From Dictyostelium discoideum (Eukaryota): a DNA stretch of 64,000 bases. The position numbers and the translations under genes are program-made. This document shows, piece by piece, positions 4,573-64,000 of this stretch (the stretch's first letter is position 1; every line of letters begins with the position of its first letter). The notes under the pieces are model-generated. The model searched no databases. It worked only from the letters and a program-made list of their open reading frames with translations, and was not told the origin of the DNA. The stretch is from NCBI GenBank assembly GCA_000004695.1, contig CM000151.3:4672001-4736000 (forward strand). Direction: 5' to 3'.

Positions 4573-4876
4573 TTATTTTTTCGAAAAGTATTGAGATATA
4601 TTATTGAAGTTATTATTATTATCGTAACCTTGATTACTTTGGAAATATTGAGTGATTACATTTGGATTGTTATCATTATTATTAGGATTATTGGTATTAT
4701 TTTTGTTATTATTGATATTATTATTATTATTATTATTATTGATATTATTATTGATATTATTATTGATATTATTGTTATTATTGTAATTGAGATTAAAATT
4801 AGCATTACCATGACTATTTAAAGTTCCAAAGTTATTTTGGTATTGATGGAATTTAAGATTTCTGTAATTATTACTA

Positions 4877-4908
<32 letters not shown>

Positions 4909-7392
4909 GTTATTATTGTTATTATTATTAATATTATTATTATTTTTATTATTTAAATAATCTTTAAAATTTGGATTAATATTTCGAAATGTAGTTTGAT
5001 TTTTAAAAATAGGAGGTGGTGGCGGTTGTGAAAATTGAAGTGATTGATAATTTTTCTTTTCTTGTTGTTGATCTTTTTTAGATTTATTTTTAGATTTTTT
5101 GGAATTAGAAGATTCTTCCTCATCGTCTTCATCATCCAATTGTTGTTGAAATTGTTGTTGTTGTAAAACTGAAGGATCATCACCAATAATTGAGAAAACC
5201 AATTCGTCTGTATCTTCTTTCTCCAAGTCAATTGTACCATCTTTTCCAATGAAATATTTATTGATTGTATTAACCCTACCTCTCATATCCAAGTTTTGAG
5301 TATGTAAAACCTCTTCTTGTCCATCCAAAGTTTCACCTAAAACCTCGAGTTTATTACAAATGGTTGGCCAAATCCTATCGTCTAGTGTATTCTTACCAAT
5401 TAAGTAATGAATATAACATGTTTTAGTTTGACCAATTCTATGAATTCTATCCTCTGCTTGACGTAATACACCGGGTGTCCAATAAAGTTCAACAAAAACA
5501 ACTAAATTCGATGCTGTTAGTGTTAAACCTGTACCTGCTGCTGTGATACTGAGTAATGCAACTTTACAAGATGCATTATTTTGAAACTTTGTAACGAAAG
5601 CTTGTCTTTGAACTGCTGGTGTCGAACCATCAATACGAATATACCCAGCTCCTGTACTCTTTATTGCTTCCTCTAAACCATTCATAATATCAGCATGATG
5701 AGCGAAAACTAAAAACTTTTCATTCTTTTTAATTAAATTTATAATATAATCACTTGATGCTTTTAATTTGGCTCTACCAGTTTCAACATAAAGGTGCATA
5801 ATTTTATCTTTTTGACCACCACCGCCACCACCACCAATACTATTAGCATTTGGTTGTTTTTGAAATTGTTGAATCATTGATAATTTATTTGATTTTGAAA
5901 ATACTGAACCAACTTCATTTTGAACATCTTTTGGAGTTGGTGTATCAACCACAACTTTTATTCTAACTTTTGGTGGTAAATCCTTTAGCACATCATTTTT
6001 TAACCTACGAATCATAACACCACGAATCAAAACATATAGTTCTTGAAGATGTGAATTACCAGTATAATCCCAACCATAGATTCCTTTGAAAGCATTACAA
6101 TAACGTAAACCAAAATCATTTAATGTTGGATAGATTGAAGCACCCAATGCCAACATTTGAGGAAACAATTCGACAGGTCTTGATAAAGCTGGTGTACCAG
6201 TTAATAAAATTCTAATCTTTGCAGTGTGAACCAATTTCAAAACGTTTTTAGTTCTTTTTGCTTCGGAATTTTTCATATAATGAGATTCATCACATATTAT
6301 AGCCTTGAAAGCTCTTGGTAATAATTCTTTCTCTAATAATCTACCAACTAAATCATAGGAACATATATTGACCATTGCATTTGCTTTATCTTCACCAGTC
6401 ATAATTACATTGATATCGACCGAGGGAAACCATTTCTCAACCTCTTTTGACCATGATAATCTTAATGATGATGGACAAATGATTAATAGTGGCCATTCTG
6501 AACGATAATAGGATGATATTGCCAATGCTTGAATGGTTTTACCCAAACCCATCTCATCACCAATTAAACATTTACCTGACAATTGTTGAGTACAAAATGA
6601 TAATGATTTCATTTGAAATGGAAGTAAGGTTGAGAATAATTCAACGGGTATTCTAGTACAATCGAATGGTAATTTACATTGAAATGCTCTCTCTTGTTGA
6701 TGCTGTAATTGTTGTTTTTTGGTTAACTTTTGTTTCTCAAGATACCATGGATCATGAAGATATCTAAATATTTCTGTTGGAATTGTATTCAATTGAAATC
6801 TTGAGCTCGTACGACTTTGTAATCTTTGTAACATTGTCACTAGGTTTTGGTATTCCGATTTGGGGAATTTCCAAATCTCTTCTTTCTCAAAACGAGTTCC
6901 TTTGGACTGTTTAAATTGTTGTAATATCTCTTCAGTTTCACCCACTATCGGTGGTACAGGATATGTTGTACCAATGATATCTAAATCATATAATTGAAAA
7001 TCAATAATGATTTGATGTGCTTGATTTCTCTTTGGTTTAATTTTACTCATTGGTTTATTATTTGGATTATTCCATTTTAAATCAGTATCAATCGATTCAA
7101 CTCTATAACTTCTTTTATTAATTTGATTACTATCTTCATTGTTTTTAATTGTATCATTAAATTCATTTGTTACATCTGGTATCTCTATTATATCTGAATC
7201 AAATGCTAATCTTGTTTTTTGTTTATTTATTGGTTTTTGTTTATTTGATATTTTACTATCAATAATATCAACTTTATCTTCTTCATCTTCAATTTCAATT
7301 GGTATACATTTAATTCTATCATTATTTTGTTTTTGTTTTTGTCTTTGTTGTTGAGGTTGAGGTTGTTGTTGTGGTTGAAATTGTGGTTGTTC

Positions 7393-7423
<31 letters not shown>

Positions 7424-7859
7424 GTTTCTTGCTTTTTCTGTTGCTGTTGTTTTTGTTGTTGCTGTTGTTGTTGCTGTTGCTGATGTTGCTGCTGTTGTAT
7501 TCTTAATTCTCTTTCATTTTTACTTTTTTCAAAAATTTCATCATAACTATCTGTTATAATATCATCATTAAAATCTATTGACATATTGTTAGTGGAAGAA
7601 GGTGTAGTTGTTTTTGTTGGTGTAGTTATTTTTGTTGGTGCAGTTGGTGAAGTTGGTGAAGTTGGTGAAGTTGGTGAAGTTGGTGAAGTTGGTGAAGTTG
7701 GTGAAGTTGGTGAAGTTGGTGAAGTTGGCTCAGATGGTTTAACTTTTGGTTTAAATGAAATTTCAGGTTGTTTTGATTGGAGAATTGGTGATGATTTGGA
7801 TTGAGGTTTTGATGGTGATATATTGTTGTTTTTTACATTATGTTGTTGTTGATTTATAA

Positions 7860-7938
<79 letters not shown>

Positions 7939-8775
7939 TACATTATTTACAATTGGTTTATTTAAAGTGCTATTATTGAACAACTTTTTTATTGGACTAT
8001 TATTATTACTAGAAGTAAAAGTGGTGGTAGTTGTGGCCATGCTATTGGCTGATGGTGCTATATTTGCTACATTCAAAGAATTTCCTCCATTAGCATTACT
8101 ACTAACGGATTTCAAATTATTATTATTACTATTGTAGTTATTGTTATTGCTATTATTATTATTATCTGATGAATCAAAAACCAACCTCTTTTTAGAGGAG
8201 CTAGGTGCTGTACTATAATCTGTATCAATAGGGTCATCTTCAAAAATCGAACTATCATCTATATTAAATTCATTCATAATATCAAAACTATTACTCAGTC
8301 GTCTTTTTCCAATACTATTATTATTATTAATATTATTAATATTAATATTACTACCATTGTTCGTGTTTACATTATATTTATTAGGGTTGTAAAATTTATC
8401 TGCAGAAGCAAAAATGTCGTCATCATTGAAACTAAACAAATTATTTTGTTGTTGTTGTTGTTGTTGTTGTTGATGTTCTTGTGGTGGAGTGGCAGGTACT
8501 GTTTGTTTATTTTGGTGATTATATAATTCCACATCACTCTCTGTATTGAACCATTTTGAAAATTGACAATCGAGAACTTTACATTTAAAATAAATTCTAT
8601 CTTTATCTTTTCCTGATGAAGGTTGTATTCTTCTACAATATCCAAAATGTGTTGGACATTTAAGTTTGGATACTTTGCTATTATTGTTTACATTATTATT
8701 GTTATTATTATTATTGTTGTTACTATTATTACTATTCGCTGTTGAAGTATTGGTTGTAGTTATAATTGTTGACAT
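4573..8775 (-). CDS. SNF2-family ATPase, SMARCAL1/ZRANB3-like annealing-helicase type, with N-terminal GRF-like zinc finger, poly-Gln tracts and a (SPT)n repeat; single exon, 1400 aa
   Basis: SNF2 N-lobe: 'LLPFQMKSLSFCTQQLSGKCLIGDEMGLGKTIQALAISSYYRSEWPLLIICPSSLRLSWSKEVEKWFPS' closely parallels the SMARCAL1/ZRANB3 block 'LLPFQ...DDMGLGKTIQAI...EWPLL..PSS.R..W'. DExH motif 'ICDESHYMKN'. Helicase-C: 'LVFAHHADIMNGLEE...LLSITAAGTGLTLTASNLVVFVELYWTPGVLRQAEDRIHRIGQ'. A HARP-like segment 'TRFEKEEIWKFPKSEYQNLVTMLQRL' precedes the ATPase. N-terminal zinc finger 'CPTHFGYCRRIQPSSGKDKDRIYFKCKVLDCQFSKWF' has C-x7-C...GRF-like spacing. Confidence 0.8.
7640..7735. repeat. Tandem 9-bp repeat (GAAGTTGGT)x about 10, which encodes (SPT)n on the - strand inside the SNF2 gene
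   Basis: Direct reading: 'gaagttggtgaagttggtgaagttggt...' repeated about ten times. The reverse-strand translation is 'SPTSPTSPTSPTSPTSPTSPTSPTAPT'. Confidence 0.9.
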
Positions 8776-9339: not shown

Positions 9340-12300
9340 ATGACTACAATAGTAGCACCTCCAATAAAATCAATTACTTCAATCGATAATGATGATAACG
9401 TTGATGGTGTTATTGAAAAGTCAGTCAAAAAACCAGTATCTTTAACATTTGATCAAATCATTGATAGATTTTATAAACATATTTTAACATGGGATGCATC
9501 AGATTTATCACCAAAGGTATGTATTTATAAAATAGATAAAACAAATAATAATAATTTCAACAATGGGTGTATACTATAGTATTGGTACTAATACTACTAC
9601 TACTGTATTTATTAATAATAATAATTTTTTTTTTTTTTTAGGAAAAAGAATTAAAACCAGTAAAAGTATCATTTAATAATGAAGAGGATTATATAACAAC
9701 CTATGAACCATTGCTTTTTGAAGAATGTAGAGCACAACTTGAAAGATCAATTGAAGAAGGTGAAAAAGATGATACATCAGAACCTACTTTATCAAGAGTA
9801 CGTTATATTTCAGAAGTAAATGATTTTTTGGTTGTTGGATTAGTAATGGCAGAAAATGTAAATATATTTCAATTTCATGATAATGATTTAATTATGATAT
9901 CACTTCATCATCCTTTAATTGTTTTTGGTATGGATGAAGATGAAGAAATGACTGATGATGAAGATACTGCACCAACTTCTGCTGCAACTCATGTTGGTGC
10001 ACCAACAAAATCAACTACTACAACTACAACAACTACAACAACAACTACTACTACAACTACTACAGCAACTACAAATATAATTGATGATCCAAATAAAACA
10101 ACAGAAGATATAAAGAAAAAGAAAAAGGTTATTCCACCATCAAAAACACCAATAACAGAACAAAATAGAACTTTACATTTAATTGGTACAGTTGAACATT
10201 TAGATAATGGTGGTATAAAGGTTAAATTCTATGTAAAAGGTATTAAAGGTGATCGTGCAAGACAAGTTAGTTTATTATTACGTTATGAAATTGATTGGTG
10301 GACAACTAAATTATGTAATCTTTCAACATTGCAAAGAGAGTTTGCTGCATTGTATCAATGTTCACAATCAAATTTTATGAAGACACTTATGATGAGAGAT
10401 GATGATGGTGAGGATGGTATAGTAATGAAGATTCCACCATTGTTACATGATCAATTCTCTTCAACCTATAATGACAGTCAATTGAATGCACTCACCAGTG
10501 CATTGGAAGGTAATGCAATCACATTGATTCAAGGTCCACCTGGTACGGGTAAAACCCATGTAATTCTCGGTCTCATTAGTGTATTACTTCATTCAACAAT
10601 TGTTCCAAAGGTTAAAAGTGGTGGTAATAATTTAGGTGATCATTTACTAAAGGACAGAGAATTAAGTATGGCAGAGAAGCGTGACCTATGGAATATTTCA
10701 CAACCATGGTTCAATAAGGAATTCCCTCACATTAGAGATAATTATGAATTGATTGATTACGATTTCGAAGAACGTGATCAAAAGAGAAAGAGAGATCTTT
10801 GGAGAAAACTTAGAGATACAGGTTCAGTGAAGGGTGGCTCAACCAAACGTAGAATCTTACTATGTGCACCAAGTAATGGTGCTGTCGATGAAATTGTCTC
10901 TCGTTTAATTCGTGATGGACTTTTGAATGCCGATGGAAGAAAGTACAATCCAAATTTGGTTCGTGTTGGTCCTGGTTCACATAGCGATGTGGAGAGTGTT
11001 TCATTGGATTATATGGTTAGATGTCGTCAACAATTAATGAACTCAAATTCTGCTATACCTTCTTCATCCGCTTCGACAGCCGCTGCAACAAGTGGTTCAA
11101 GTCGTTCCACTCAAGATACTTCCTCGATTAGAACGTTGGTTTTGGATGAAGCTGATATTGTCGCCACAACATTATCATTTAGTGGTGCATCATTGTTGAC
11201 AAAGATGGCAGGTGGTTTCGATATTGTAATCATTGATGAGGCTGCACAAGCCGTAGAAACCTCGACATTAATTCCCATTCAACATGGTTGTAAAAAGGTG
11301 GTGTTGGTTGGTGATCCAAAACAATTGCCTGCCACTATTATCTCGCCATTGGCTATCAAGTATAAATATGATCAATCGTTATTCCAACGTTTACAAGAGA
11401 AGAATTCACCACATATGTTGACCACACAATATCGTATGCATTCATTGATTCGTGCATTCCCCTCACGTCATTTCTATCAAGATCTCTTATTGGATGGTCC
11501 AAACATTCCATCAAGAGCTACACACTATCATTCAAATCCTTTCTTTGGTCCATTGGTATTCTATGATCTATCATGGAGTACTGAAACCAAACCCGGTGGT
11601 GGTTCAGTTTTCAATGAGCATGAATGTAAGATGGCTATGTATCTATTCCAATTGTTTACCAAAGTTTATCCTGATGAAGATTTTGCAAGTCGTATTGGTA
11701 TCATTTCACCATATCGTCAACAGGTTTTAGCATTACGTGAAATCTTTAAAAACTATCCTGGTATCTCTATTGATACCGTAGATGGTTTCCAAGGTAGAGA
11801 GAGAGAAATCATCATTTTCAGTTGTGTTAGAGCACCAGTTGAAGAGGGTGCAGGTATTGGTTTTCTTTCAGATGTTCGTCGTATGAATGTAGCTTTAACA
11901 CGTCCAAGATCATCTCTATTGATCCTTGGTAATACTAAAGCATTAAGTATCAACAAAGATTGGAATGAATTAATTCAACATACTCAAAACAATCAACAAT
12001 TAATTCCTGTTACCAAAGATCAACCATTAGAAATTATCATACCAACTTTTACAACTCGTGAATTATTTACCGAACTCTCTGAAAAAGGTCAACAAATTGT
12101 AATTCCAAAACCAAGAACTGAAGAAGAAATTAATCTTCAAAAACAAAAAGATATTGAAAAAAGAAAGAAACAACATAAAAGACAAAAACAAAAATCAAAA
12201 GAAAATGATAAAAAGAAACAATTAAAAAAAAGAAAAGAATTAAATAATAATGATAATAATAATAATAATAAAGAAAGTAGTAATAAAGAAGTTCAAGAAA

Positions 12301-12368
12301 TTACTAATGCAGAAGTTGTTAAAGACACTGAAATAAATAATACTAAAAGGGCTAGAACAAGAAGATAA
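9340..12368 (+). CDS. Superfamily-1 DNA/RNA helicase of the Upf1/Sen1 (DNA2/NAM7) family; 2 exons: join(9340..9516, 9642..12368)
   Basis: Motifs: Walker A 'GPPGTGKTH'; Ia 'LLCAPSNGAVDEIVSRL'; II 'IVIIDEAAQAVE'; III 'VVLVGDPKQLPAT'; IV 'LTTQYRMH'; V 'IDTVDGFQGREREIIIFSCVRA'; VI 'FLSDVRRMNVALTRPRSSLLILGN'. Intron 9517-9641 begins GTATGT and ends TTTTTTTTTAG. Exon 1 has 59 codons, and exon 2 continues in phase 0 with 'EKELKPVKVSFNNEEDYITTYEPLLFEECRAQ'. C-terminal Lys-rich tail. Confidence 0.8.
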
Positions 12369-28981: not shown

Positions 28982-30637
28982 TTAATTTGTATTTAATTTA
29001 TTAATAACAATTGCAGAGAATACACCAATATCCTCTTGTTGATAAGAATCATTACCAGTATATTCTTGTGGTCTACTTAAGAGACATCTTAAATTACCAT
29101 ATTTAGAACCACAAAATAATATTGTGTGAGGTGTTACTTTATTATTTTTACTTTTATCAGGTTCATTCATAGTTTTATTTGAAACCTTTTCAATGATTAA
29201 TTGATTATCACCTCTATTATTAATTAAGAAGGTAAAAACTTGAACTCTTTCACTGCCAAAATAATTTTTAATTTCATTCCAAATCAAAAGATCTAAACCT
29301 TTCAAATGATTTTCATTAACATTTGATTTATAAAGATGAGAAAGGAATATACCACAATTTACTGATCTTTCATTGATTACATTTTCAAAAATTGAAATCA
29401 TCTTTTGTAAATGTTTTTTATTGGCCTTGATTGAACAATCTTTTTCAGATTCATTCTTATTTTGATAATTTAAAGTTAAGAATTTATCTTTTTCAGAATA
29501 TTCGGTTGGTTCATTTCTATATTCAAAGAAATCATCCATTCTTTTAAAAGTTATAAGTGGTTCATTTTCTTTTCTTTCTTCATTAATAAATAGAATATTA
29601 AATTGTAATACAATTCTAACACCTTTGGTAACTGGAGTAACCGTATGAATACAATCATTATAGAATGCAATCCATTTGAAATCGATTGAATCTTGTAGTT
29701 TATTATCATTTGCTTCAATTTTATAATTAATGGTTGTTTGATCGAATGTATCATTTTCAGAGATTATAAATTCACCACCTTCATATGTATCAACACCTAA
29801 TGGAACAATATAGGTACCAATATGATTTTTAGAATGAATGGTATCGATATGTGGTTGAAAATGACCACCTTCATTATAAATATGAATTTTATATAATTCA
29901 AGATCATAGTTTGTTTTCTTATAAAAGAATTGATTTTCTTTTAATGGATGTTTGAAATCAAATTGATTCATTACTTTATAATCTTTATAATTTTCTGCTT
30001 TTTCTTGGAAAAATGGTACTTTAACTCTATTACCTTCAATATGATAACCTTTTCTAATGTTTTCATCGTAAACTGTGTCAACACCATTTCCAAAACTTGA
30101 TTTCTTTGAAAAACTTTGAATTAAATTTAAATCTGGTTCAAAAATTGTACCACATTCTTTATCATCAATATAAATGTTAAAATCATAATTAACTTCATTT
30201 TCATTTTTAAAAGTTTTCACTTTTTTAAAATCTTTACTTGCTTTTGGATCCTTTGGATGATAATTTTCATTAAAACGAATTGTTTCCTTTGGTATTTTAT
30301 AAGTGCCAGTTAGCAATGATGGAACATCTAATGATGAATAATAAAAACTAATGTCTTTATTTTCTTCGACTCTATAACCAGTTTCATGGTTACTATTAAA
30401 TAATGAATGAATCTTATCTCTAACTTTTAAATATGAATAAATGTAATCATCACCTTTGAAAATATAATCATCTAATTGTAATTTTGGTAATATAAATAAA
30501 TTCCAACTTTTACAAACCAATGAGATTTTACAATAAAAATCAAATTGTTTACCTTCATAAAATGATTCTTGGATTGATAATTTCAAAATTTTTACAAATA
30601 TTAAATTTGGAAAACAAATTGATTTATTATTATTCAT
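28982..30637 (-). CDS. F-box protein with a C-terminal-half 2-oxoglutarate/Fe(II)-dependent dioxygenase domain of the prolyl-4-hydroxylase (P4Hc) type; single exon, 551 aa
   Basis: N-terminal F-box-like motif 'CFPNLIFVKILKLSIQESFYEGKQFDFYCKISLVCKSWNLFILPKL', with the pattern LP-x-[EL]-[IL]-x-x-x-I-L...VCK-x-W. Oxygenase core 'YNEGGHFQPHIDT...GTYIVPLGVDTYEGGEFII' shows the H-x-D metal-binding dyad and the GGE[TF] motif; the distal His and 2OG-binding Arg are 'DCIHTVTPVTKGVRIVLQF'. Confidence 0.65.
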   Translation of the reverse strand: MNNNKSICFPNLIFVKILKLSIQESFYEGKQFDFYCKISLVCKSWNLFILPKLQLDDYIFKGDDYIYSYLKVRDKIHSLFNSNHETGYRVEENKDISFYYSSLDVPSLLTGTYKIPKETIRFNENYHPKDPKASKDFKKVKTFKNENEVNYDFNIYIDDKECGTIFEPDLNLIQSFSKKSSFGNGVDTVYDENIRKGYHIEGNRVKVPFFQEKAENYKDYKVMNQFDFKHPLKENQFFYKKTNYDLELYKIHIYNEGGHFQPHIDTIHSKNHIGTYIVPLGVDTYEGGEFIISENDTFDQTTINYKIEANDNKLQDSIDFKWIAFYNDCIHTVTPVTKGVRIVLQFNILFINEERKENEPLITFKRMDDFFEYRNEPTEYSEKDKFLTLNYQNKNESEKDCSIKANKKHLQKMISIFENVINERSVNCGIFLSHLYKSNVNENHLKGLDLLIWNEIKNYFGSERVQVFTFLINNRGDNQLIIEKVSNKTMNEPDKSKNNKVTPHTILFCGSKYGNLRCLLSRPQEYTGNDSYQQEDIGVFSAIVINKLNTN

Positions 30638-42056: not shown

Positions 42057-44839
42057 TTAAACTAATTGATCAGCATATATTGATTTACTATCAAAATCAT
42101 CAATACTATTGATTGGTGAAATTGATGGTTGTAATCTTGATTGTGGTGGAGGTAATGGAGGTGATGACATTGAATCAATTGATGAATGTAATATATTATC
42201 ATTTGATTGATTTATTGAATTACCATTCTTTGATTTCTTTGTAGGTTTATTCTTTTTAAAATTTTTCTTTATTCTATTTTTTAATAAAATTCTTGAAGTT
42301 TTACTATACAATTTAAATTTAATATTTAATACTAATCCAACAACTAAAATTACACCTATTACAATTATTGCTATTACCCAACCATTCTTTTCAATAAAAC
42401 CTTTTTGAACATTTTTCGAAATTTTAGAATTATTATTTTCACCACCAATACTATTATTATTATAATTATTATTATTATTATTTGAAAATAATAAATCATG
42501 ATTATATATTGTTAATTCCTTTCCACCACTTTTACCATTAATTATTACATTTACAAATAATAATTTATCAATTATTAAATTTGTTTGTTGTTCAACTAAA
42601 CAAGTTATACATGATGAATTTATAAATGAAATATTTGAACAATTATAATATCCAATTGAAATATAATCAATTTGTTTATAAAATTCATTTCCTGTAATTA
42701 TTACTAAACCAGTTGATTTTGAAATTGTAGTATTTAAAACTAATGGTGGGTAAAATTTAATTGAGATATTTTCATGTTTATTATTAAATACAACTTCCAA
42801 ATATTGATCATTTGGGCCATTAATATTCATTTGGCAAGAAATTGTTGAGAAATTTATAAATGTACAATTATAATCTAAATTATTGGTAACACAATGAAGG
42901 TGAGAATTTTCAATTGTTTCTTTTACAAAGTTTTTACCAATAATTAAAATTGAGCCACCTGTTGAATTAAAAATTGGATTTGTTTGAAAATAGTCAACAC
43001 TTGGTGAGATATCAACTTTTAATGGTACTGTGAATTCATTACAAACTTCAAGTTTAAATTCACTAGATCCATACTCTGGTTTCAATGGGAATGAAATTAA
43101 TGAATTTGTAAATTTGATTGATATATTTGCAACATTATCAACAATTATTGAATTTGAAAAAATAATCTTAATTTTACCACTTTTATATAAATCAATAAAA
43201 TCTTGATATTGACCAACACATTCAATCATTTGATTATTTCCAATTGAACAATTATTAACAATTGGTAAATTGTAATTAAATTCTGAATGAATTGTATCAT
43301 TACCAATTGATATCAAAAATCCATTTCTACCACACCCTTTTGGAATTGTAAATGAATATGTATGTTTTGAGAAATCAGTAGAGTTTTTTAAATCAATACC
43401 AGTGATTTTACTATTATCAGATTGTAGTGTAATTATTGGTGTTGAATTATAATTTAATGGATTTATATTATAAAGTGTGAAATTTACAATTTGACCATTT
43501 ACAGATGGAGATGCTGGATTTTGTATCGAATAAAATGGAGAGGTTATTTCAGCAATGTTTGATTTTAAACCATTTACAACTACATTTATTTTTGATTTTG
43601 TTATTTGATTTGGTTTAAATAAAATTGAAGTTTGATTTTCATTAACAAGAATTTTTAAATTAGTTTGTTGAACATCATCAATAAATATTTGAGTAGTTTC
43701 ATTTGTACCAAAGAAATTACCAGATAGTTTCACTTCACCTTGTATAATTATTATGTTTGTTATAATAGGTTGATCAAATGAGAATAGTAATTTATTTTCA
43801 TTTGAAATTGAATTAATGGTTAATTTGATAGGTAAATTAACTGAATCACCATTATTAATAATAGGATCAATTCTACAAATTAATTGTTGATTTATAAATG
43901 TTACATTTTTACAATCATATGTACCAATTTTAACAAGTATAGTCGAATTGGCTAGCAATGATGGTGGTGGAGATAGTCTTGAACCTGTTATTGTTATTAG
44001 ACCACCATACTTTTTTGAAACACTATTGGCACTGTTTAAAATTGGTTTATAATCAAATGAAACATGATTGGATCCTAAGCCACCAGATATTATATGCAAT
44101 GATACTGATTTACTATATGGTTGGATGTATGCTATTTCAAAAATTTCATGATCAATTAGAGTTATATTAGATTTATCAATTTTGATACCCTCTATGAAAA
44201 TTGTTACATAATCTATAATGTTACAAAAGTTTGATCCATTTGCAATTATTTTAGTATCACTTGATGAAACACTTGAAATGTTTGGTTTTTGATGATTAAA
44301 TGTATAGTTGAAATTATTTGGCCAAGTGAATGTTCTAGGACCACAACCTCCTTTATAATCAAGAGTTAAGTTTGTAATATCAATTGTTGAAGATTCAAGA
44401 TCACCAATAATTGGCACCTTTGTTGAAGGAAGGATAGTAAATTTTGTAATACCAAAAACTAAATAATATCCTTGAATATTAACATAACCACCTTTAGTAG
44501 GTGGTTTAAATTCACCATCTATTATTGGTTGTGGATAATAATCTTTCCACAAAAATGAATTACATTCAGATGCTCCGTTTGTACTTGTAATACAATTTAA
44601 AATTTGACCTTTAAATTTCTTAACTATTGTTTCATTAACAGAACCAACACAAGTTCTAATAACTGTATTATTTGTACAAGAAAATGGTAAATCTACATCT
44701 GTAAATTCCCATTTTGAAAAATAATTACTATTTTTATCAAATATATAAGTTATTGAATCTTTTGTAAAATTTGATCCTTTTTATAAAAATAAAAAACTAA
44801 CATTATTAATTTTTTTGTTTATTTTTATTATTATTTTCC

Positions 44840-46639: not shown

Positions 46640-48060
<1,421 letters not shown>

Positions 48061-49859: not shown

Positions 49860-51290
<1,431 letters not shown>

Positions 51291-51515: not shown

Positions 51516-52640
51516 ATGGAATGTGGAGATGTTCAAGCTTTAGTAATCGATAATGGTTCTAGTATAAGTAAAGCCGGTTTTGCGGGTGATGATGCTCCAC
51601 GTGCTGTTTTCCCATCAATTGTTGGTCGTCAAAGATATAGGGATGTTATGGTTGGTATGGGTCAAAAGGATTCATATGTAGGTGATGAGGCTCAATCAAA
51701 AAGAGGTATCTTAAATCTCAAATATCCAATTGAACGTGGTATCATAACCAATTGGGATGATATGGAAAAGATCTGGCATCATACTTTCTACAATGAACTA
51801 CGTGTTGCACCAGAGGAGCATCCAATACATTTAACCCTATCTCCATCAAGTTCAAAAGCAAACAGAGAAAAGATGACTCAAATCATGTTTGAAACTTTCA
51901 GTAATCCAGCAATGTACATATCAATTCAATCAGCTTTATCATTATATGCATCTGGTCTTACCACTGGTATTGTCATTGATTCAGGTGATGGTGTTTCCCA
52001 CACTGTACCAATCCTTGAAGGTCATTCAATAAACCATGCTATCTCACGTTTGGATTTGGCTGGTAATGATCTCACTGATTATTTGGGTAAATTATTATCT
52101 GGACGTGGCTATCCATTCATATCAATTGACGAAACAGAAATAGTCAGAGATATCAAAGAAAAACTATCATATATCACATTAGATTTCCAAAATGAAATTA
52201 AAATTGTTTCATCAGCATTAGAGAAATCATATGAATTACCAGATGGTAAAGTGATTTCAATTGGTAATGAACTTTTTCGTTGTCCAGAAGCTCTCTTCCA
52301 ACCATCATTCTTAGGTATGGAATCAGCTGGTATTCACGAAACCACATACAATTCAATTATGAAATGTGATGTCGATATTCGTAAAGACCTATATGATAAT
52401 GTTGTATTATCAGGTGGTACAACTATGTTCCCAGGTATTGCTGATCGTATGAACAAAGAATTAACTGCATTAGCACCATCAACAATGAAAATCAAAATCA
52501 TTGCACCACCAGAACGTAAATACTCAGTTTGGATTGGTGGATCAATGTTATCATCGCTCTCAACTTTCCAACAAATGTGGATTTCCAAAGAAGAATATGA
52601 CGAATCTGGTCCATCAATTGTTCACAGAAAATGTTTCTAA
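51516..52640 (+). CDS. Divergent actin paralogue, 374 aa, intronless: the N-terminal two-thirds is diverged, and the C-terminal one-third plus the start of the 3'UTR is near-identical in nucleotides to the upstream canonical actin
   Basis: '[52 protein letters not shown]...' carries substitutions in the phosphate-1 loop (GSGMCKAG to GSSISKAG) and around residues 38-42 (PRHTG to QRYRD), and a 2-codon deletion near 'MQTAASS'. From about codon 245 onward ('ELPDG...SIVHRKCF'), the DNA at 52230-52700 matches 50750-51200 almost base for base. Confidence 0.85.
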
Positions 52641-58778: not shown

Positions 58779-61700
58779 TTATTTACCCTTTAAAACTGAT
58801 GCAATTTCTCTTGTTCTATATTCTTTTGATGCTTGATAAGAAACAAAGATAGCGATACAAATTGACATAATGAGTACACCAATGAACCAAAAGTATGGGA
58901 ATTCAAAACTAAAAGGTAACTCTGTGAAAAGATCGAATTGAAGGGTAAGAGTTAGGGCGATACCTAAACCAATTGAAAGACCAAGTATCATTGAAGAAAA
59001 GATTAAAACCAATGCTTCATAGATATAGATACGAGTAACTTGAAAACTTGTTAAACCAATTGAACGTAAAACACCAAATTCCCAAGAGTTTTCATGAATA
59101 TTTGCACTGAATGAAACCCATAGCATAAAGAAACACAAAACAATGGAAGCCACTGAAACTGTGTAAAAGAAGATATTTAAAATTGTGACGGCAGTCTCTG
59201 TTGTGTCCAAAAGATGTTGAGTATCCATAACTTGAATATTATCAGTTTTAATGAAATTTCTAACACCATTGATGACGTACTCTCTTTCAATTTCAGAGGT
59301 ACCTTGTTTTAATTTAATGAGTACTTTTGATTTTGGAGCAACACTTGGTAAAACAACCGATGGATCGTTGGTAACAGAGTAAACCATCTGCATAATTCTA
59401 TAGAATTCATCATCATTGACCAAAATGGGAGAACCATAGGAAGTTTGAGAATAAGTTGAGAAAAAGAATGATGGGAACATTCTAACCATTGATTGACCTT
59501 TTGCTAACAATGTAATATGATTCACTGCGTTACTATATTGTTTATACTCTATATCCAAATTGAATGGTGAATCTGTATCTACACCACAAGTCAATCTAAA
59601 TGCTTCACTGAAAATGATATCTGTATAATTTTGATAGATGTAAGTGTTGTTCAAATGATTCTTTAACCATTTCCAAACTGGACTATTTGTAGGATATTGT
59701 TGACTACCATTTGATACAATGTTTGGTGGTGGAGTGATTACACCATTGAAATCCTCTGAAATGATATCACGATGTTCATTAACATATAAACTATTGATAA
59801 CATCGGGTATCTTCTTACCAGCACCATTATCTATGGTTGGGAAAGTTATTGTTTTGGACATTTCAGTTACTTCATAGAAATCTAAATAAGCACTTGAAAG
59901 GAAATTACTTTCGACACCATACATTCTAACATTTACCGATGGATATTCAGCCAATGGCATTAAATGAGTGGATCTAATATTCATAACTTTATCCAATGGG
60001 AATGTGATAACGGTATAATCGCTAATGACAGAGTTGGTATTGTTTGCTATATCATTATCCAAGAAAGCTCTAATATCAGCCTCTGGAATTGGATTCTTAA
60101 TACTTGTGGCCAATACGGAAATATCAGAACCAATACCTAAACGTACCAACTCTTGAATGTTATGACCCTGTAAACGGAATACACAACCTGTGAAAATGAT
60201 AAATGTTAAACTAATGGTTAACATTGTGGCAGTCTTTGAATTTCTAGTACTATGAGAGAAAAGATTCTTTCTAACCAATTGATAAAGTGATCTTCTATCG
60301 GGACCAACAATTAATGTGAAAATGACGGCTTTCTCTAATAATGGTTGAACTGCTTGTGCCAACATTGACATACCAAATAACATACCCATTAGAATACCAG
60401 TGAGAATACCAAAGAAAAGTCCCATATTTCTAAATGTAAATGATAGCGGTATTAAATAATAGACGGTGAAACCAACAGCCACAGCCAACAATGCCAACAA
60501 TGTTTGAAGTACATCTAAACCAACTTCTTCTAGTTTTTCGATTTTAACCAATGTTTCATTCTTTACTTGATGATAAACATCGAGTGCATCACGTAGTGTA
60601 CGTGATAAAGCACGTTGAATTGGTGCGATATTTGCAACGATTGGCATAAGAAAACCCATGAGCAAACCTGATACAATACTTGTGGTATGATATGTTAAAT
60701 CGATTGGTAATAATACAAATTGAACATAGACAAAGTAGGCAACGATTGCATAAAGGCACCAACCAATGAATAGACCAAAAACAATACCAGGAATACTGAA
60801 ATAGAGTGATTGAGTCAAGAGCAATAGAATCAAAGCATATTGACGCATACCTTGAGCACGTAACATACCATATTCAAATGTTTTACCTTCAACATCACTT
60901 AAAAGCAAACTATAGACCATTAATGCACCCAATACCAATAAGACTGCAGCGACACAATTGAAAATCTGATTCAATGATAACTTTGTATAAATGAACAATT
61001 GAAGTGTTGTTGCTAATGGAGTTGTGAAAGAAACTGGATAACTTATACCCAATAAAGTGGAGACTTGATTTGTGAATGCCATCATACCCTTGACCATATC
61101 TTCATTGGAGGAGGTGTAAACCTTTACACGATTCTCTAGCATTATCACTGGTGTCATTGAAAAATCATTTAATTTGAATGATTTTCTAAACGATTCAAAT
61201 TTATCTACGAATCTATTATATTGACCAATGTAATCGGTAACATTTGATAAACCAAACTCTTGTGCTTCAACCTCTAAGAATGTTAAAAAATCCTTATAGT
61301 CTTTACTTGTGATTTGATTATTAAATTGCTCCAATTTCTCCTTTATCAATGTTTCCAAATATGATGATTCCAATATACCAACATTACCAATTGTATTTGG
61401 ATATTTACCACCTGGCTCATCGATTGAACCCATAACCACCAAATCGTGATCAATTGATAAATCCGATCGAATTGAATTATAAAACTCTCTCAATGCAACC
61501 AATGGATAGAATGTCATTGTACCACTTTTCGAATCGATAACGAATCCTTTTGGACCAAACAAATCACTTAGGGTATCTTCAATATGAGTTCCAGGGTTCA
61601 TTAGGTCATAAGTTTCAATCAAATCGGTAACATCCATTTCTTTGGGTATTTTGAATCCAATTTGTAATTGAATAGAGTCAACTAAACTTTCAAAACTTGG

Positions 61701-62994
61701 AAAAGTAGCTGGCAATCCTAAACGTTGTAAAATATCAATGAAATCCATATGTAAATGTACCACTTGATTATTCATTGCTTTAACATTAATTCTTCTTAAA
61801 AATGGTGCACTAATATGAATTTGATTACCAACCAATGGTGGTAATGTCCAACCTCTTCCCAATCCTAATTCTTTTTCCAATGTTGAATTAATTGACATAA
61901 TTAATAATGTTGCACCATTTTTATTAATATTATTATTATTATTATCATCGTCAGAACTATCACTTGATGATAAACTACCACTTGATGATAAACTACTACT
62001 AGTGGTTGATGTTGTGTTTGAGGTTGTAATTGCAGCAATTGAAATCCAACGTGGAGCAACACCATGAACAGTTAAGGCATCAGCTAATTTTTGAGTTAAA
62101 TAAGTTGAATTTACAAAATAACCTGAATAATCCATTGTTAAAAATGATAATTGATCACTGATACCACCCAAAAAACCATTGAATAAATAGAATGGACTCT
62201 TTGATAATCTCTCTTCAACCAAACCTTGTTGTTTAATTAATTCCAATGCTTTTTTAATTCTCGTTGAAGTACTTGATTTACTTGTTTTATCTAAATATTG
62301 ATCCTCTTCTGAATCTGTATTTACAACTGTTAAACTTTGACTTTGATTACTTGAAACATAATTACCAGGATCACCAATCAATACTAAATCTAACTCTCCT
62401 GCTTGATCCTCTGATAATTTTAAAAATACAATTGGTGATGATTGAATTAAATTTTGTAAAAAACTAAAAAAAAAAAAAAAAGTAAAAAAAATAAAAAAAT
62501 AAAAATTAAAAACTTTTATATTAATATATAAAAATAAATTATAATAATTTAAATTATTTAAAACTTACCTTATAAATAATACAACTAAAAATACTGTAAA
62601 TAAACCTAATAATAAACTTTTTCGATTCTTTTTTGAGTTATTGTGAACATATTTTACAGCCACTCTAAGATCACCATACAAAGTATATCTTAATGAGAAA
62701 TAAATATAATAAATGAAACCTTTTACAGTGTTTAAATCAAAAACACCACTCGATAAAGGATTATCATTATCGTTGTTATTGTTGTATATATTTTTATAAT
62801 TATTGTTACTACTGCTACTACTACCAATGTTATTGCTATTATTTAAACTATATGTGTCGAATGTTCTATTTGATTTTAAAAATGGTGAATTTGTGTGTGG
62901 TGTAGAATGTGATGTTACACTATTTAATATGCTACCGCCACCATTACCACTACCACTACCACTACCACCATCATACTCGTTATCGCTATCGTAA

Positions 62995-63029
<35 letters not shown>

Positions 63030-63212
63030 GTTATTATTTTTATTATTATTATCTATATCTAATCTTTCATATCTTTTAGTATGTCTATTTGAATTTAAAT
63101 TGTTATTATATATTCGGTTATTTCTATTTGTATTTGGTGTATTTGAACTTGTATTACTACTTTCACTCTCATCTTCATATAGCAGATGATGGTGATTAGA
63201 TGAAATATTCAT
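58779..63212 (-). CDS. Polytopic membrane protein with two FtsX/MacB-like permease modules (tandem DUF214, YbbP-like topology) and no nucleotide-binding domain, about 1442 aa; join(63212..62569, 62463..58779) on the - strand
   Basis: Exon 1 is low-complexity (poly-Asn, 'GGSGSGSGNGGGS') and ends in a TM helix 'SLLLGLFTVFLVVLFI' at a GTAAGT donor (phase 2). A 105-nt AT-rich intron ends TTTTTAG. FtsX module 1: 'GMLRAQGMRQYALILLLLTQSLYFSIPGIVFGLFIGWCLYAIVAYFVYV...'. FtsX module 2: 'GVLRSIGLTSFQVTRIYIYEALVLIFSSMILGLSIGLGIALTLTLQFDLF...FWFIGVLIMSICIAIFVSYQASKEYRTREIA'. Each module is preceded by a large hydrophilic, presumably extracytoplasmic, domain. Confidence 0.7.
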
Positions 63213-63488
63213 ATCACTTAATTCAACTAAAGGTTCCTTTTGAATTTTATTTTCTCTTTCAGTGTTTGAATTCCTTTAAAAAAAAAAAAAAAAAATTAGA
63301 ATAAAGGTAATAGCACAAAAAAAAAAAAAAAAGGAATTTTTTTTTTTTTAATTTTTAATGTTAATTGAATAAATAAATAAAAATAAAAAAACAAAAATAA
63401 ATTAATATATAAATTAATATATAAATTAATGTATTAATTAATTAAAAACAAAAACAATTTTAAAAAATTAACGAAAATAATAAGTGAG

Positions 63489-63519
<31 letters not shown>

Positions 63520-63881
63520 AATATCACACTAAAGCTATATGGTCACTGGCTCTTAAATCTTAATTTTATTATTGCTTTTTTGTTTTTTGTATGGAACGGA
63601 ACAAATTAAAATAAAAAAAAAAAAAAACACACAGACACACACAATAAAATAAAAGAATTGGGTTGTTTTCAATTTTTCATGTTTTTTTATTATTATAATT
63701 TTTTATTATGTTTATTAATTTATTTTGTCTATTTTTATTTTTTATTATTTTTTTTATTTTTTATTTTTTCGTATTGGTTTCAGACAATTAAGATTAATTA
63801 ATCAAAAAAAAACTTATATAAATTACATATATAAGTTTTTTGATTAATATATGTACATATATATATATAATATGTAATAAA

Positions 63882-63914
<33 letters not shown>

Positions 63915-64000
63915 AACTAATTTCACACACACACAACAACACACAGCATACAAAGGTCAACTAATCGACTTTGAAAAATAATGTTTATATGAATGTACAT

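Follow-up and report, generated by a model that had tools for sequence, protein, structure and literature searches.

The element analysed here is a gene for a large membrane protein, located on the minus strand at 58779-63212 of a 64,000-nucleotide stretch of Dictyostelium discoideum DNA (contig CM000151.3, positions 4,672,001 to 4,736,000; hereafter the window, whose own numbering is used; all features of the gene are on the minus strand). Its product is probably the membrane subunit of a type VII (MacB/FtsX-fold) ATP-binding cassette (ABC) system of eukaryotes. With very little doubt as to fold and topology, both taken from a structural model, the predicted protein is a single-chain pseudo-dimer of YbbP architecture with a cytosolic N-terminus and ten transmembrane helices (TM). 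Judged from sequence comparison, this is an old family, spread widely over eukaryotes, and not one imported into Dictyostelium alone.

Predicted architecture

The AlphaFold2 model was computed, with 60 homologues, from query residues 157-1442 after removal of two loops of low complexity and poor conservation in the first extracytoplasmic domain (ECD1), which left 1188 aa. Its mean predicted local distance difference test score (pLDDT) is 87.2 and its predicted template modelling score (pTM) is 0.75. It contains ten long helices and two alpha/beta ectodomains (ECD1 and ECD2). The charge is +6/-1 before TM1 and before TM7, and the exoplasmic loops are acidic or neutral; this bias (positive-inside rule) fits an N-in topology. 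The features of type VII permeases are found in the predicted model: 4-TM module, N-in orientation, ECD carried on stalks between TM1 and TM2, and coupling helix between TM2 and TM3. Those of the YbbP type are predicted as well: ten TM, two 4-TM modules, a TM5-6 linker and two ectodomains.

The model was compared with the PDB using Foldseek. The best match is YbbP (9ge7_A; E 4.9e-21 over 1200 alignment columns), followed by BceB (about 1e-13), LolE and MacB; all top matches are type VII permeases. An earlier note on this DNA had described two four-helix FtsX modules, each preceded by a large hydrophilic domain, in a YbbP or MacB-dimer-like arrangement. The arrangement is borne out: two independent methods both rank Escherichia coli YbbP first among full-length structural matches. 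The layout was amended: the two FtsX modules and their large hydrophilic domains are found, but the helices number ten, not eight, and the domains lie between TM1 and TM2 of a module. Each ectodomain precedes the Pfam FtsX region, which spans TM2-4. Membrane topology prediction, put forward in the same note as a check, gives ten helices, N-in, with a TM5-TM6 hairpin joining the modules.

From N- to C-terminus, the predicted features are the following. Residues 1-160 (within 62569..63212) are cytosolic and of low complexity (poly-Asn, Gly-Ser); this is the Dictyostelium-style low complexity reported earlier. An amphipathic helix (residues 163-195, within 62569..63212) precedes TM1. ECD1 (residues 237-705; 60993..62399) has a MacB/LolCE-type core (Porter + Sabre), to which helical inserts and two low-complexity loops are added; its fold was found to be MacB/LolCE-like by structure comparison of the predicted domain. 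TM2, coupling helix 1, TM3 and TM4 form the first FtsX region (60612..60992; Pfam/NCBIfam matches and model helices). Coupling helix 1 (LSDVEGKTFEYGMLRAQGM; 60846-60902) lies within the most conserved 20-aa bin. The cytosolic segment after TM4 (ALSRTLRDALDVYHQVKNETLVKIEKLEEV; 60522..60611) carries invariant or near-invariant residues (2.77 bits); in the model its helix is a continuation of TM4, and a loop of low pLDDT comes next. The TM5-TM6 hairpin linking the FtsX modules is at 60312..60512 (model helices 866-891 and 895-932). A second amphipathic cytosolic helix (LYQLVRKNLFS), then TM7, are at 60168..60299; the K, N, H and R residues there hardly vary. ECD2 (residues 993-1295; 59223..60131) is mixed alpha/beta and is predicted with confidence in the full AlphaFold2 model; the full-length superposition on YbbP suggests a MacB-type domain. 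TM8, coupling helix 2, TM9 and TM10 form the second FtsX region (58806..59222; Pfam, model and conservation), in which coupling helix 2 (SWEFGVLRSI) is at 59058-59087.

Domain content and ATPase motifs

The Pfam-A scan of the permease gives FtsX (PF02687) and nothing else. Two stretches are matched (E 1.5e-26, 93.2 bits versus a gathering cut-off of 25.5), so the tandem FtsX call of the earlier note holds in a profile search. The best stretch covers residues 1316-1434 (profile positions 2-119 of 120); the first FtsX region is matched by Pfam and NCBIfam at residues 709-843. NCBIfam gives only weak sub-threshold matches (DevC, MacB, ADOP duplicated permease), all in the TM2-4 regions. The two halves of the permease are weakly alignable over TM2-4 (BLASTP E 6e-4). 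In a profile search, MacB_PCD (PF12704) has no match at E<=1 in the permease.

A motif scan of the permease detected no G-x4-GK[ST], [LFY]SGG[QEM] or hhhhD[DE], in agreement with the earlier statement that the open reading frame (ORF) lacks Walker A/B and the ABC signature. No Walker A + signature pair was found in the six frames of the window, and a tblastn search of the window with E. coli YbbA gave no match. A complete type VII ABC system, i.e. one with a nucleotide-binding domain (NBD) either fused or as a partner, is thus not found within the protein or the window.

Conservation within the eukaryotic family

Conservation was scored in 20-residue bins over a 61-sequence eukaryotic alignment. 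The two most conserved bins are 735-754 (SDVEGKTFEYGMLRAQGM; 3.26 bits) and 1335-1354 (ANIHENSWEFGVLRSIGLTS; 3.15 bits), versus 0.6-2.3 bits for the ectodomains. These two bins are the segments equivalent to the YbbP coupling helices (TM2-3 and TM8-9), and the coupling-helix motif is E-x-G-x-L-R-A-x-G. Strong conservation is also seen in the amphipathic helix before TM7 (KNLxxHxxRNxKT) and in the family-specific segment after TM4 (TLRDALDxYHxxxxETxVxxxKLE). The ALSRTLRDALDVYHQVKNETLVKIEKLEEV segment is presumably the 'PAxxAAxxxPxxALR'-like C-terminal tail of FtsX modules plus a family-specific extension; we know of no obvious counterpart of TLRDALDxYHxxxxETxVxxxKLE among bacterial permeases. 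The strongest constraint thus bears on the small cytosolic face, as expected if a cytosolic partner still docks there.

Three ECD1 motifs (PxGKYPxxLGNV, VxGxxPRW and GLGRxW) are nearly invariant across the 61 eukaryotic homologues. The family-wide motif GKYPxxxGNV is at residues 565-577 (61377-61415), and another ECD1 motif is at residues 346-353. To our knowledge, these motifs have no counterpart in the periplasmic domains of bacterial MacB/LolCE. They may mark a substrate or partner site.

Comparison with known systems

The closest known architecture is that of E. coli YbbP (PDB 9GE6/9GE7/9GE8; PMC12646458). Both proteins have ten TM, two pseudo-symmetric 4-TM FtsX modules, a TM5-6 hairpin joining the modules, one ectodomain per module on stalk helices, coupling helices between TM2-3 and TM8-9, and no NBD in the chain. 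In YbbAP, two YbbA ATPases per YbbP are docked on these coupling helices; ATP binding closes the four stalk helices and shifts the periplasmic domains, i.e. mechanotransmission (PMC12646458). The role proposed for YbbAP is to pull hydrophobic molecules from the outer leaflet for a bound hydrolase, TesA (PMC12646458). The Dictyostelium protein differs by its size (about 1465 aa versus 804 aa, i.e. about 1.8 times), by much larger ectodomains with helical inserts and by a 160-residue low-complexity cytosolic N-terminus. Its gene is eukaryotic and has introns, and no ybbA-like ATPase gene was found in the window. Orthology with YbbP was considered and dropped: the 61-sequence profile aligns to E. 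coli YbbP with E 0.09 and a probability of 0.6% (hhalign), and no YbbA-like gene is found in the window (TesA was not searched for). The likeness is therefore architectural, since the sequence similarity is not significant.

Bacillus subtilis BceB, from BceAB(-S), also has a 10-TM tandem FtsX fold and a separate ATPase (BceA2:BceB1); its target is lipid-linked and lies at the outer leaflet. BceB has a single large extracellular domain (TM7-TM8), whereas the Dictyostelium protein has two (237-705 and 993-1295), which rules out a BceB-type permease. MacB, LolC/LolE, FtsX, HrtB and YtrF form homo- or heterodimers of 4-TM chains, whereas the Dictyostelium modules are fused. MacB has in addition a fused N-terminal NBD, which the Dictyostelium permease lacks; membership in MacB is ruled out (NF007826: 16.4 bits versus a cut-off of 966; no PF12704; no NBD). 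The ADOP family duplicated permease (TIGR03434) shares a duplicated FtsX and matches residues 711-843 weakly (E 0.003). The full name of ADOP marks orphans without a neighbouring ATPase gene. Membership in this bacterial family is ruled out (15.7 bits versus a family cut-off of 622).

The gene almost certainly belongs to TCDB 3.A.1.207, judged by features and names, not by alignment to reference sequences. This family, named Eukaryotic ABC3 (E-ABC3), is already catalogued (PMC7997004). Its two-component entries comprise a subunit with no or one transmembrane segment (0-TMS or 1-TMS) and a 10-TMS permease; a prokaryotic entry, Heimdall OLS18414 + OLS18415, is a 10-TMS permease with a 0-TMS subunit (PMC7997004). 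The shared features are the 10-TMS topology, the eukaryotic host and the FtsX/ABC3 type; the UniRef name of the orthologues is 'ABC3 transporter permease C-terminal domain-containing protein'.

Energising and proposed mechanism

Energising by a separately encoded ABC ATPase, with a 2:1 stoichiometry, is considered fairly likely. It is favoured because the YbbP-type docking loops are the best-conserved parts of the family, and also by the NBD-only 'ABCH' proteins of Dictyostelium, Tetrahymena and trypanosomatids, which have no assigned membrane partner. In the proposed mechanism, two copies of the cytosolic ATPase would dock on the coupling helices TM2-3 and TM8-9; one of the NBD-only 'ABCH' proteins is the candidate in Dictyostelium. 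ATP binding would zip the stalk helices, and mechanotransmission would move both extracytoplasmic domains. The work would be done on the exoplasmic/luminal side and would not be solute carriage through the bilayer. YbbAP, LolCDE and BceAB suggest, by analogy, that the permease would likely extract or present a hydrophobic or amphipathic molecule of the outer leaflet; this substrate class is proposed with low confidence. Lysolipids, lipid-anchored molecules and membrane-active peptides would be candidates.

Loss of the ABC partner, leaving a family that functions without ATP, is considered unlikely. Such a derivative might handle lipids or amphiphiles passively, act as a BceB-like receptor or sensor, or serve as a scaffold for an exoplasmic enzyme; a non-ABC cytosolic partner bound to the conserved segment after TM4 could also drive the permease. 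Several observations point in this direction and weigh against an ABC-driven system. No fused NBD was found in the 173 fetched relatives (motif scan) nor in the six longest (Pfam), no ATPase motif was found near the homologues at the nine loci scanned, and motif scan and YbbA tblastn detected no ATPase partner in the window. The conserved cytosolic segment after TM4 is family-specific, and the weak match to ADOP is to a family of orphan permeases. The Entamoeba entry of TCDB 3.A.1.207, C4LT38 (10-TMS), is single-component (PMC7997004). An ABC-driven system is further weakened by the lack of significant profile similarity to YbbP, by a structure known here only as a prediction, and by the fact that conservation of the TM2-3 loops could reflect constraints on FtsX folding or gating, not ATPase docking. 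However, eukaryotic genes are not in operons, so non-adjacency says little; in both halves conservation is highest in the NBD-docking loops, which is unexpected after loss of the partner; and every structurally characterised relative is ATP-driven. It is somewhat less likely still that the whole eukaryotic family runs a MacB-type fold without an ABC ATPase, i.e. independently of ATP or with a non-ABC partner on the coupling helices and the segment after TM4. If so, it would be the first type VII ABC-fold machine uncoupled from the ABC cassette, present since early eukaryotic evolution.

Distribution and origin

Word-indexed searches (with the protein and with a dictyostelid alignment) returned almost only dictyostelids and one metagenomic protein (25% identity). 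The identity of the orthologues ranges from 95% (D. citrinum) down to 49% (Acytostelium). Acytostelium subglobosum has two paralogues (56% and 49% identity); for the other dictyostelids the searches returned one copy each. In the paralogue with 49% identity, some 57 alignment columns of ECD1 are missing, possibly through an error in the gene model.

An exhaustive phmmer search was run against 1.84 billion cluster representatives (50% identity clusters). It gave 4091 matches with E<1e-3, 1337 with E<1e-10 and 514 clusters with E<1e-30. The best 150 clusters all have E<1e-73; they are mostly long (median about 1100 aa), with some shorter fragments, and many of them align across both ectodomains and both TM modules (26-45% identity). 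Among 30 clusters looked up by name, every organism-named one is eukaryotic. Members were found in Amoebozoa (Mastigella, Vermistella, Balamuthia), CRuMs (Rigifila), Metamonada (Anaeramoeba), chytrid fungi (Powellomyces and Polychytrium), a centrohelid (Pterocystis), an MMETSP transcript and Trypanosoma cruzi; other kinetoplastids were added (T. rangeli, T. conorhini, T. grayi, T. vivax, Leishmania enriettii, Angomonas). T. brucei is absent from the word-limited homologue search that listed T. cruzi, T. vivax, Leishmania and Angomonas. Metagenome contigs carrying relatives also encode UTP25, RICTOR, Sin3 and a HUWE1-like HECT ligase. Animals, plants and Dikarya are not represented among the 30 name-checked clusters (no dedicated absence test was made). 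The earlier statement that FtsX-fold permeases are rare in eukaryotes is not supported by the 514 clusters with E<1e-30 and the named members in many eukaryotic lineages.

The prokaryote scan covered one genome from each of 185,579 species with two coupling-helix peptide patterns. It gave only four loci, all in bins of metagenome-assembled genomes (MAG). Full-length relatives are carried by contigs binned as Glaciecola, Verrucomicrobiaceae and 'uncultured Gammaproteobacteria' (loci L006, L007 and L008). At L007 and L008 the match is broken across several ORFs and frames; L006 consists of a single ORF on a contig of 4 kb. L007 and L008 are considered mis-binned intron-containing eukaryotic genes because the match splits over ORFs and frames, and the MAG-bin loci were rejected as bacterial relatives on account of these intron-like splits (L007, L008) and of the lone ORF on its short contig (L006).

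An old bacterial acquisition in the Dictyostelium lineage, evoked in the earlier note together with widespread eukaryotic homologues as the observation that would argue against it, is not upheld: such homologues were found. Acquisition of a bacterial YbbP/MacB-type permease in the dictyostelid lineage or recently, followed by domestication, is highly improbable. The bacterial COG-style names given to metagenomic relatives by the JGI pipeline would fit it. However, full-length homologues with 25-45% identity are found in at least six eukaryotic supergroup-level lineages, at least two of the four loci from the prokaryote scan are intron-interrupted and mis-binned, bacterial permeases of solved structure match weakly and only in TM2-4 (E about 1e-3), and the gene itself has introns, a host-like composition and low complexity. 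Neither a narrow eukaryotic range nor close bacterial relatives, as expected from a horizontal acquisition, were found. An ancient origin is rather probable: either through inheritance from the ancestor of eukaryotes, archaeal or bacterial, or through one transfer before their radiation, with losses in animals, plants and Dikarya. It is suggested by the broad spread over eukaryotes and by TCDB, which places systems of Heimdallarchaeota and MK-D1 in the same family; these match the eukaryotic entry weakly (E 6e-12, 19.9% identity). Against it, the losses are read from the 30 name-checked clusters, and multiple eukaryote-to-eukaryote transfers may also have taken place. An ancient origin concerns the origin only and is compatible with a separately encoded ATPase.

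Place among known families

The gene is an ordinary but uncharacterised member of a neglected known family, which is catalogued in Pfam FtsX and TCDB 3.A.1.207 and is not a new kind of system. Literature searches turned up no functional work on eukaryotic members. Type VII ABC systems (MacAB, LolCDE, FtsEX, BceAB, YbbAP) are treated as bacterial envelope machines, and a 2025 paper describes them as bacterial (PMC12646458). The same fold is predicted here for a single-copy conserved gene of a tractable model eukaryote, in a family that spans amoebae, chytrids, kinetoplastids (T. cruzi, Leishmania) and metamonads. The energising subunit and the substrate would show the role of a mechanotransmission ABC machine in a cell without periplasm and might expose a parasite-specific membrane target. 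The value of the gene is in pointing to this functional question, not in a discovery.

Gene model and transcript

The gene was modelled as an exon (63212..62569), an intron (62568..62464) and a second exon (62463..58779). Two ORFs, of 215 codons (63212..62565) and 1200 codons (62381..58779), flank the intron; joining 62569 to 62463 gives a single continuous frame of 1442 codons plus the stop. The first exon as first modelled (62569..63212) encodes the N-terminus, the amphipathic helix and the start of TM1. The main exon (58779..62463) encodes residues 215-1442 (the rest of TM1, ECD1, TM2-TM10 and ECD2) and carries the stop. The intron (105 nt, AT-rich, GTAAGT...TTTAG, phase 2) splits TM1. The canonical AT-rich intron noted earlier is thus recovered as a GT..AG intron whose splicing restores the frame, and the splice-junction peptide LFISFLQNL is kept in all dictyostelid orthologues. 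The base composition of the region is AT-rich and typical of Dictyostelium (exons about 30-35% GC, spacers 11-19%).

The spliced frame of the 1442-aa model given in the earlier note is correct, but its 5' end is probably short. The 20 codons 63272..63213, in frame 5' of the ATG at 63212, encode NSNTERENKIQKEPLVELSD, which matches the N-termini of the protein models of D. citrinum, D. dimigraforme and D. firmibasis (MNRNSNTERETKSQKEPLVELSDMNIS...). The probable coding extension is 63213..63273 and encodes, in frame, (R)NSNTERENKIQKEPLVELSD, a peptide conserved in these three Dictyostelium species. A VEL(S/N) motif in the extension is conserved across dictyostelids. The first exon is proposed from the predicted gene model of the sister species D. 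citrinum, whose orthologous locus (L011) has an 8-nt first exon (ATGAATAG, followed by GT) and then an intron of about 570 nt. The final bases of the window (64000 downward) align to this D. citrinum intron from its nucleotide 3; the true first exon would therefore be just outside the window. From this alignment, the true start is probably the 8-nt exon at about 64003-64010 (about 64001-64010 with its GT donor). Most of the probable first intron, of about 730 nt, is at 63274..64000 (acceptor ...TTTAAAG/G at 63274/63273). The ATG at 63212 is probably an internal Met; 23 residues would be absent from the 1442-aa model, and the full product would be about 1465 aa.

Genomic neighbourhood

The C-terminal exon of a cytochrome P450 (57511-58554, plus strand) is convergent with the permease gene, the stop codons being about 225 bp apart. 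Local synteny is conserved: P450 and actin neighbours are also present at the D. citrinum locus. Two actin-sized ORFs (46776-47906, minus strand, and 50018-51148, plus strand; 376 aa each) have identical Pfam Actin scores (E 7e-152); a third actin-sized ORF (374 aa) is at 51516-52640 (plus strand).

Two neighbourhoods were noted in other genomes. In T. cruzi, the accessions of the homologues XP_816783.1 and XP_813195.1 are three to four from those of 'ABCG5' (XP_816786 and XP_813191, TcChr22; PMC9505544). The homologue and ABCG5 are probably near neighbours on both haplotypes, which may be a coincidence in a polycistronic genome. On two GC-rich eukaryote contigs (L002, 13564-14217; L003, 3706-4359), a 217-aa ORF starts 4 bp before the stop of the permease homologue, on the same strand. 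It has a signal-peptide-like N-terminus and no Pfam match and is not an ATPase; it was rejected as an NBD, being a secreted-type protein. It may encode a secreted partner or simply lie there by chance.

The other genes identified in the window include a SNF2-family helicase (4573-8775, minus strand), a UPF1/SEN1-like AAA_11/AAA_12 helicase (9711-12368, plus strand), which is the sole P-loop match in the window scan, and a 2OG-Fe(II) oxygenase (28982-30637, minus strand). The oxygenase and both helicases are unrelated to the permease. Immunoglobulin-like domains of the TgrO1 type (Tgr family; Pfam E 3.6e-32) are encoded at 42057-44552 (minus strand).

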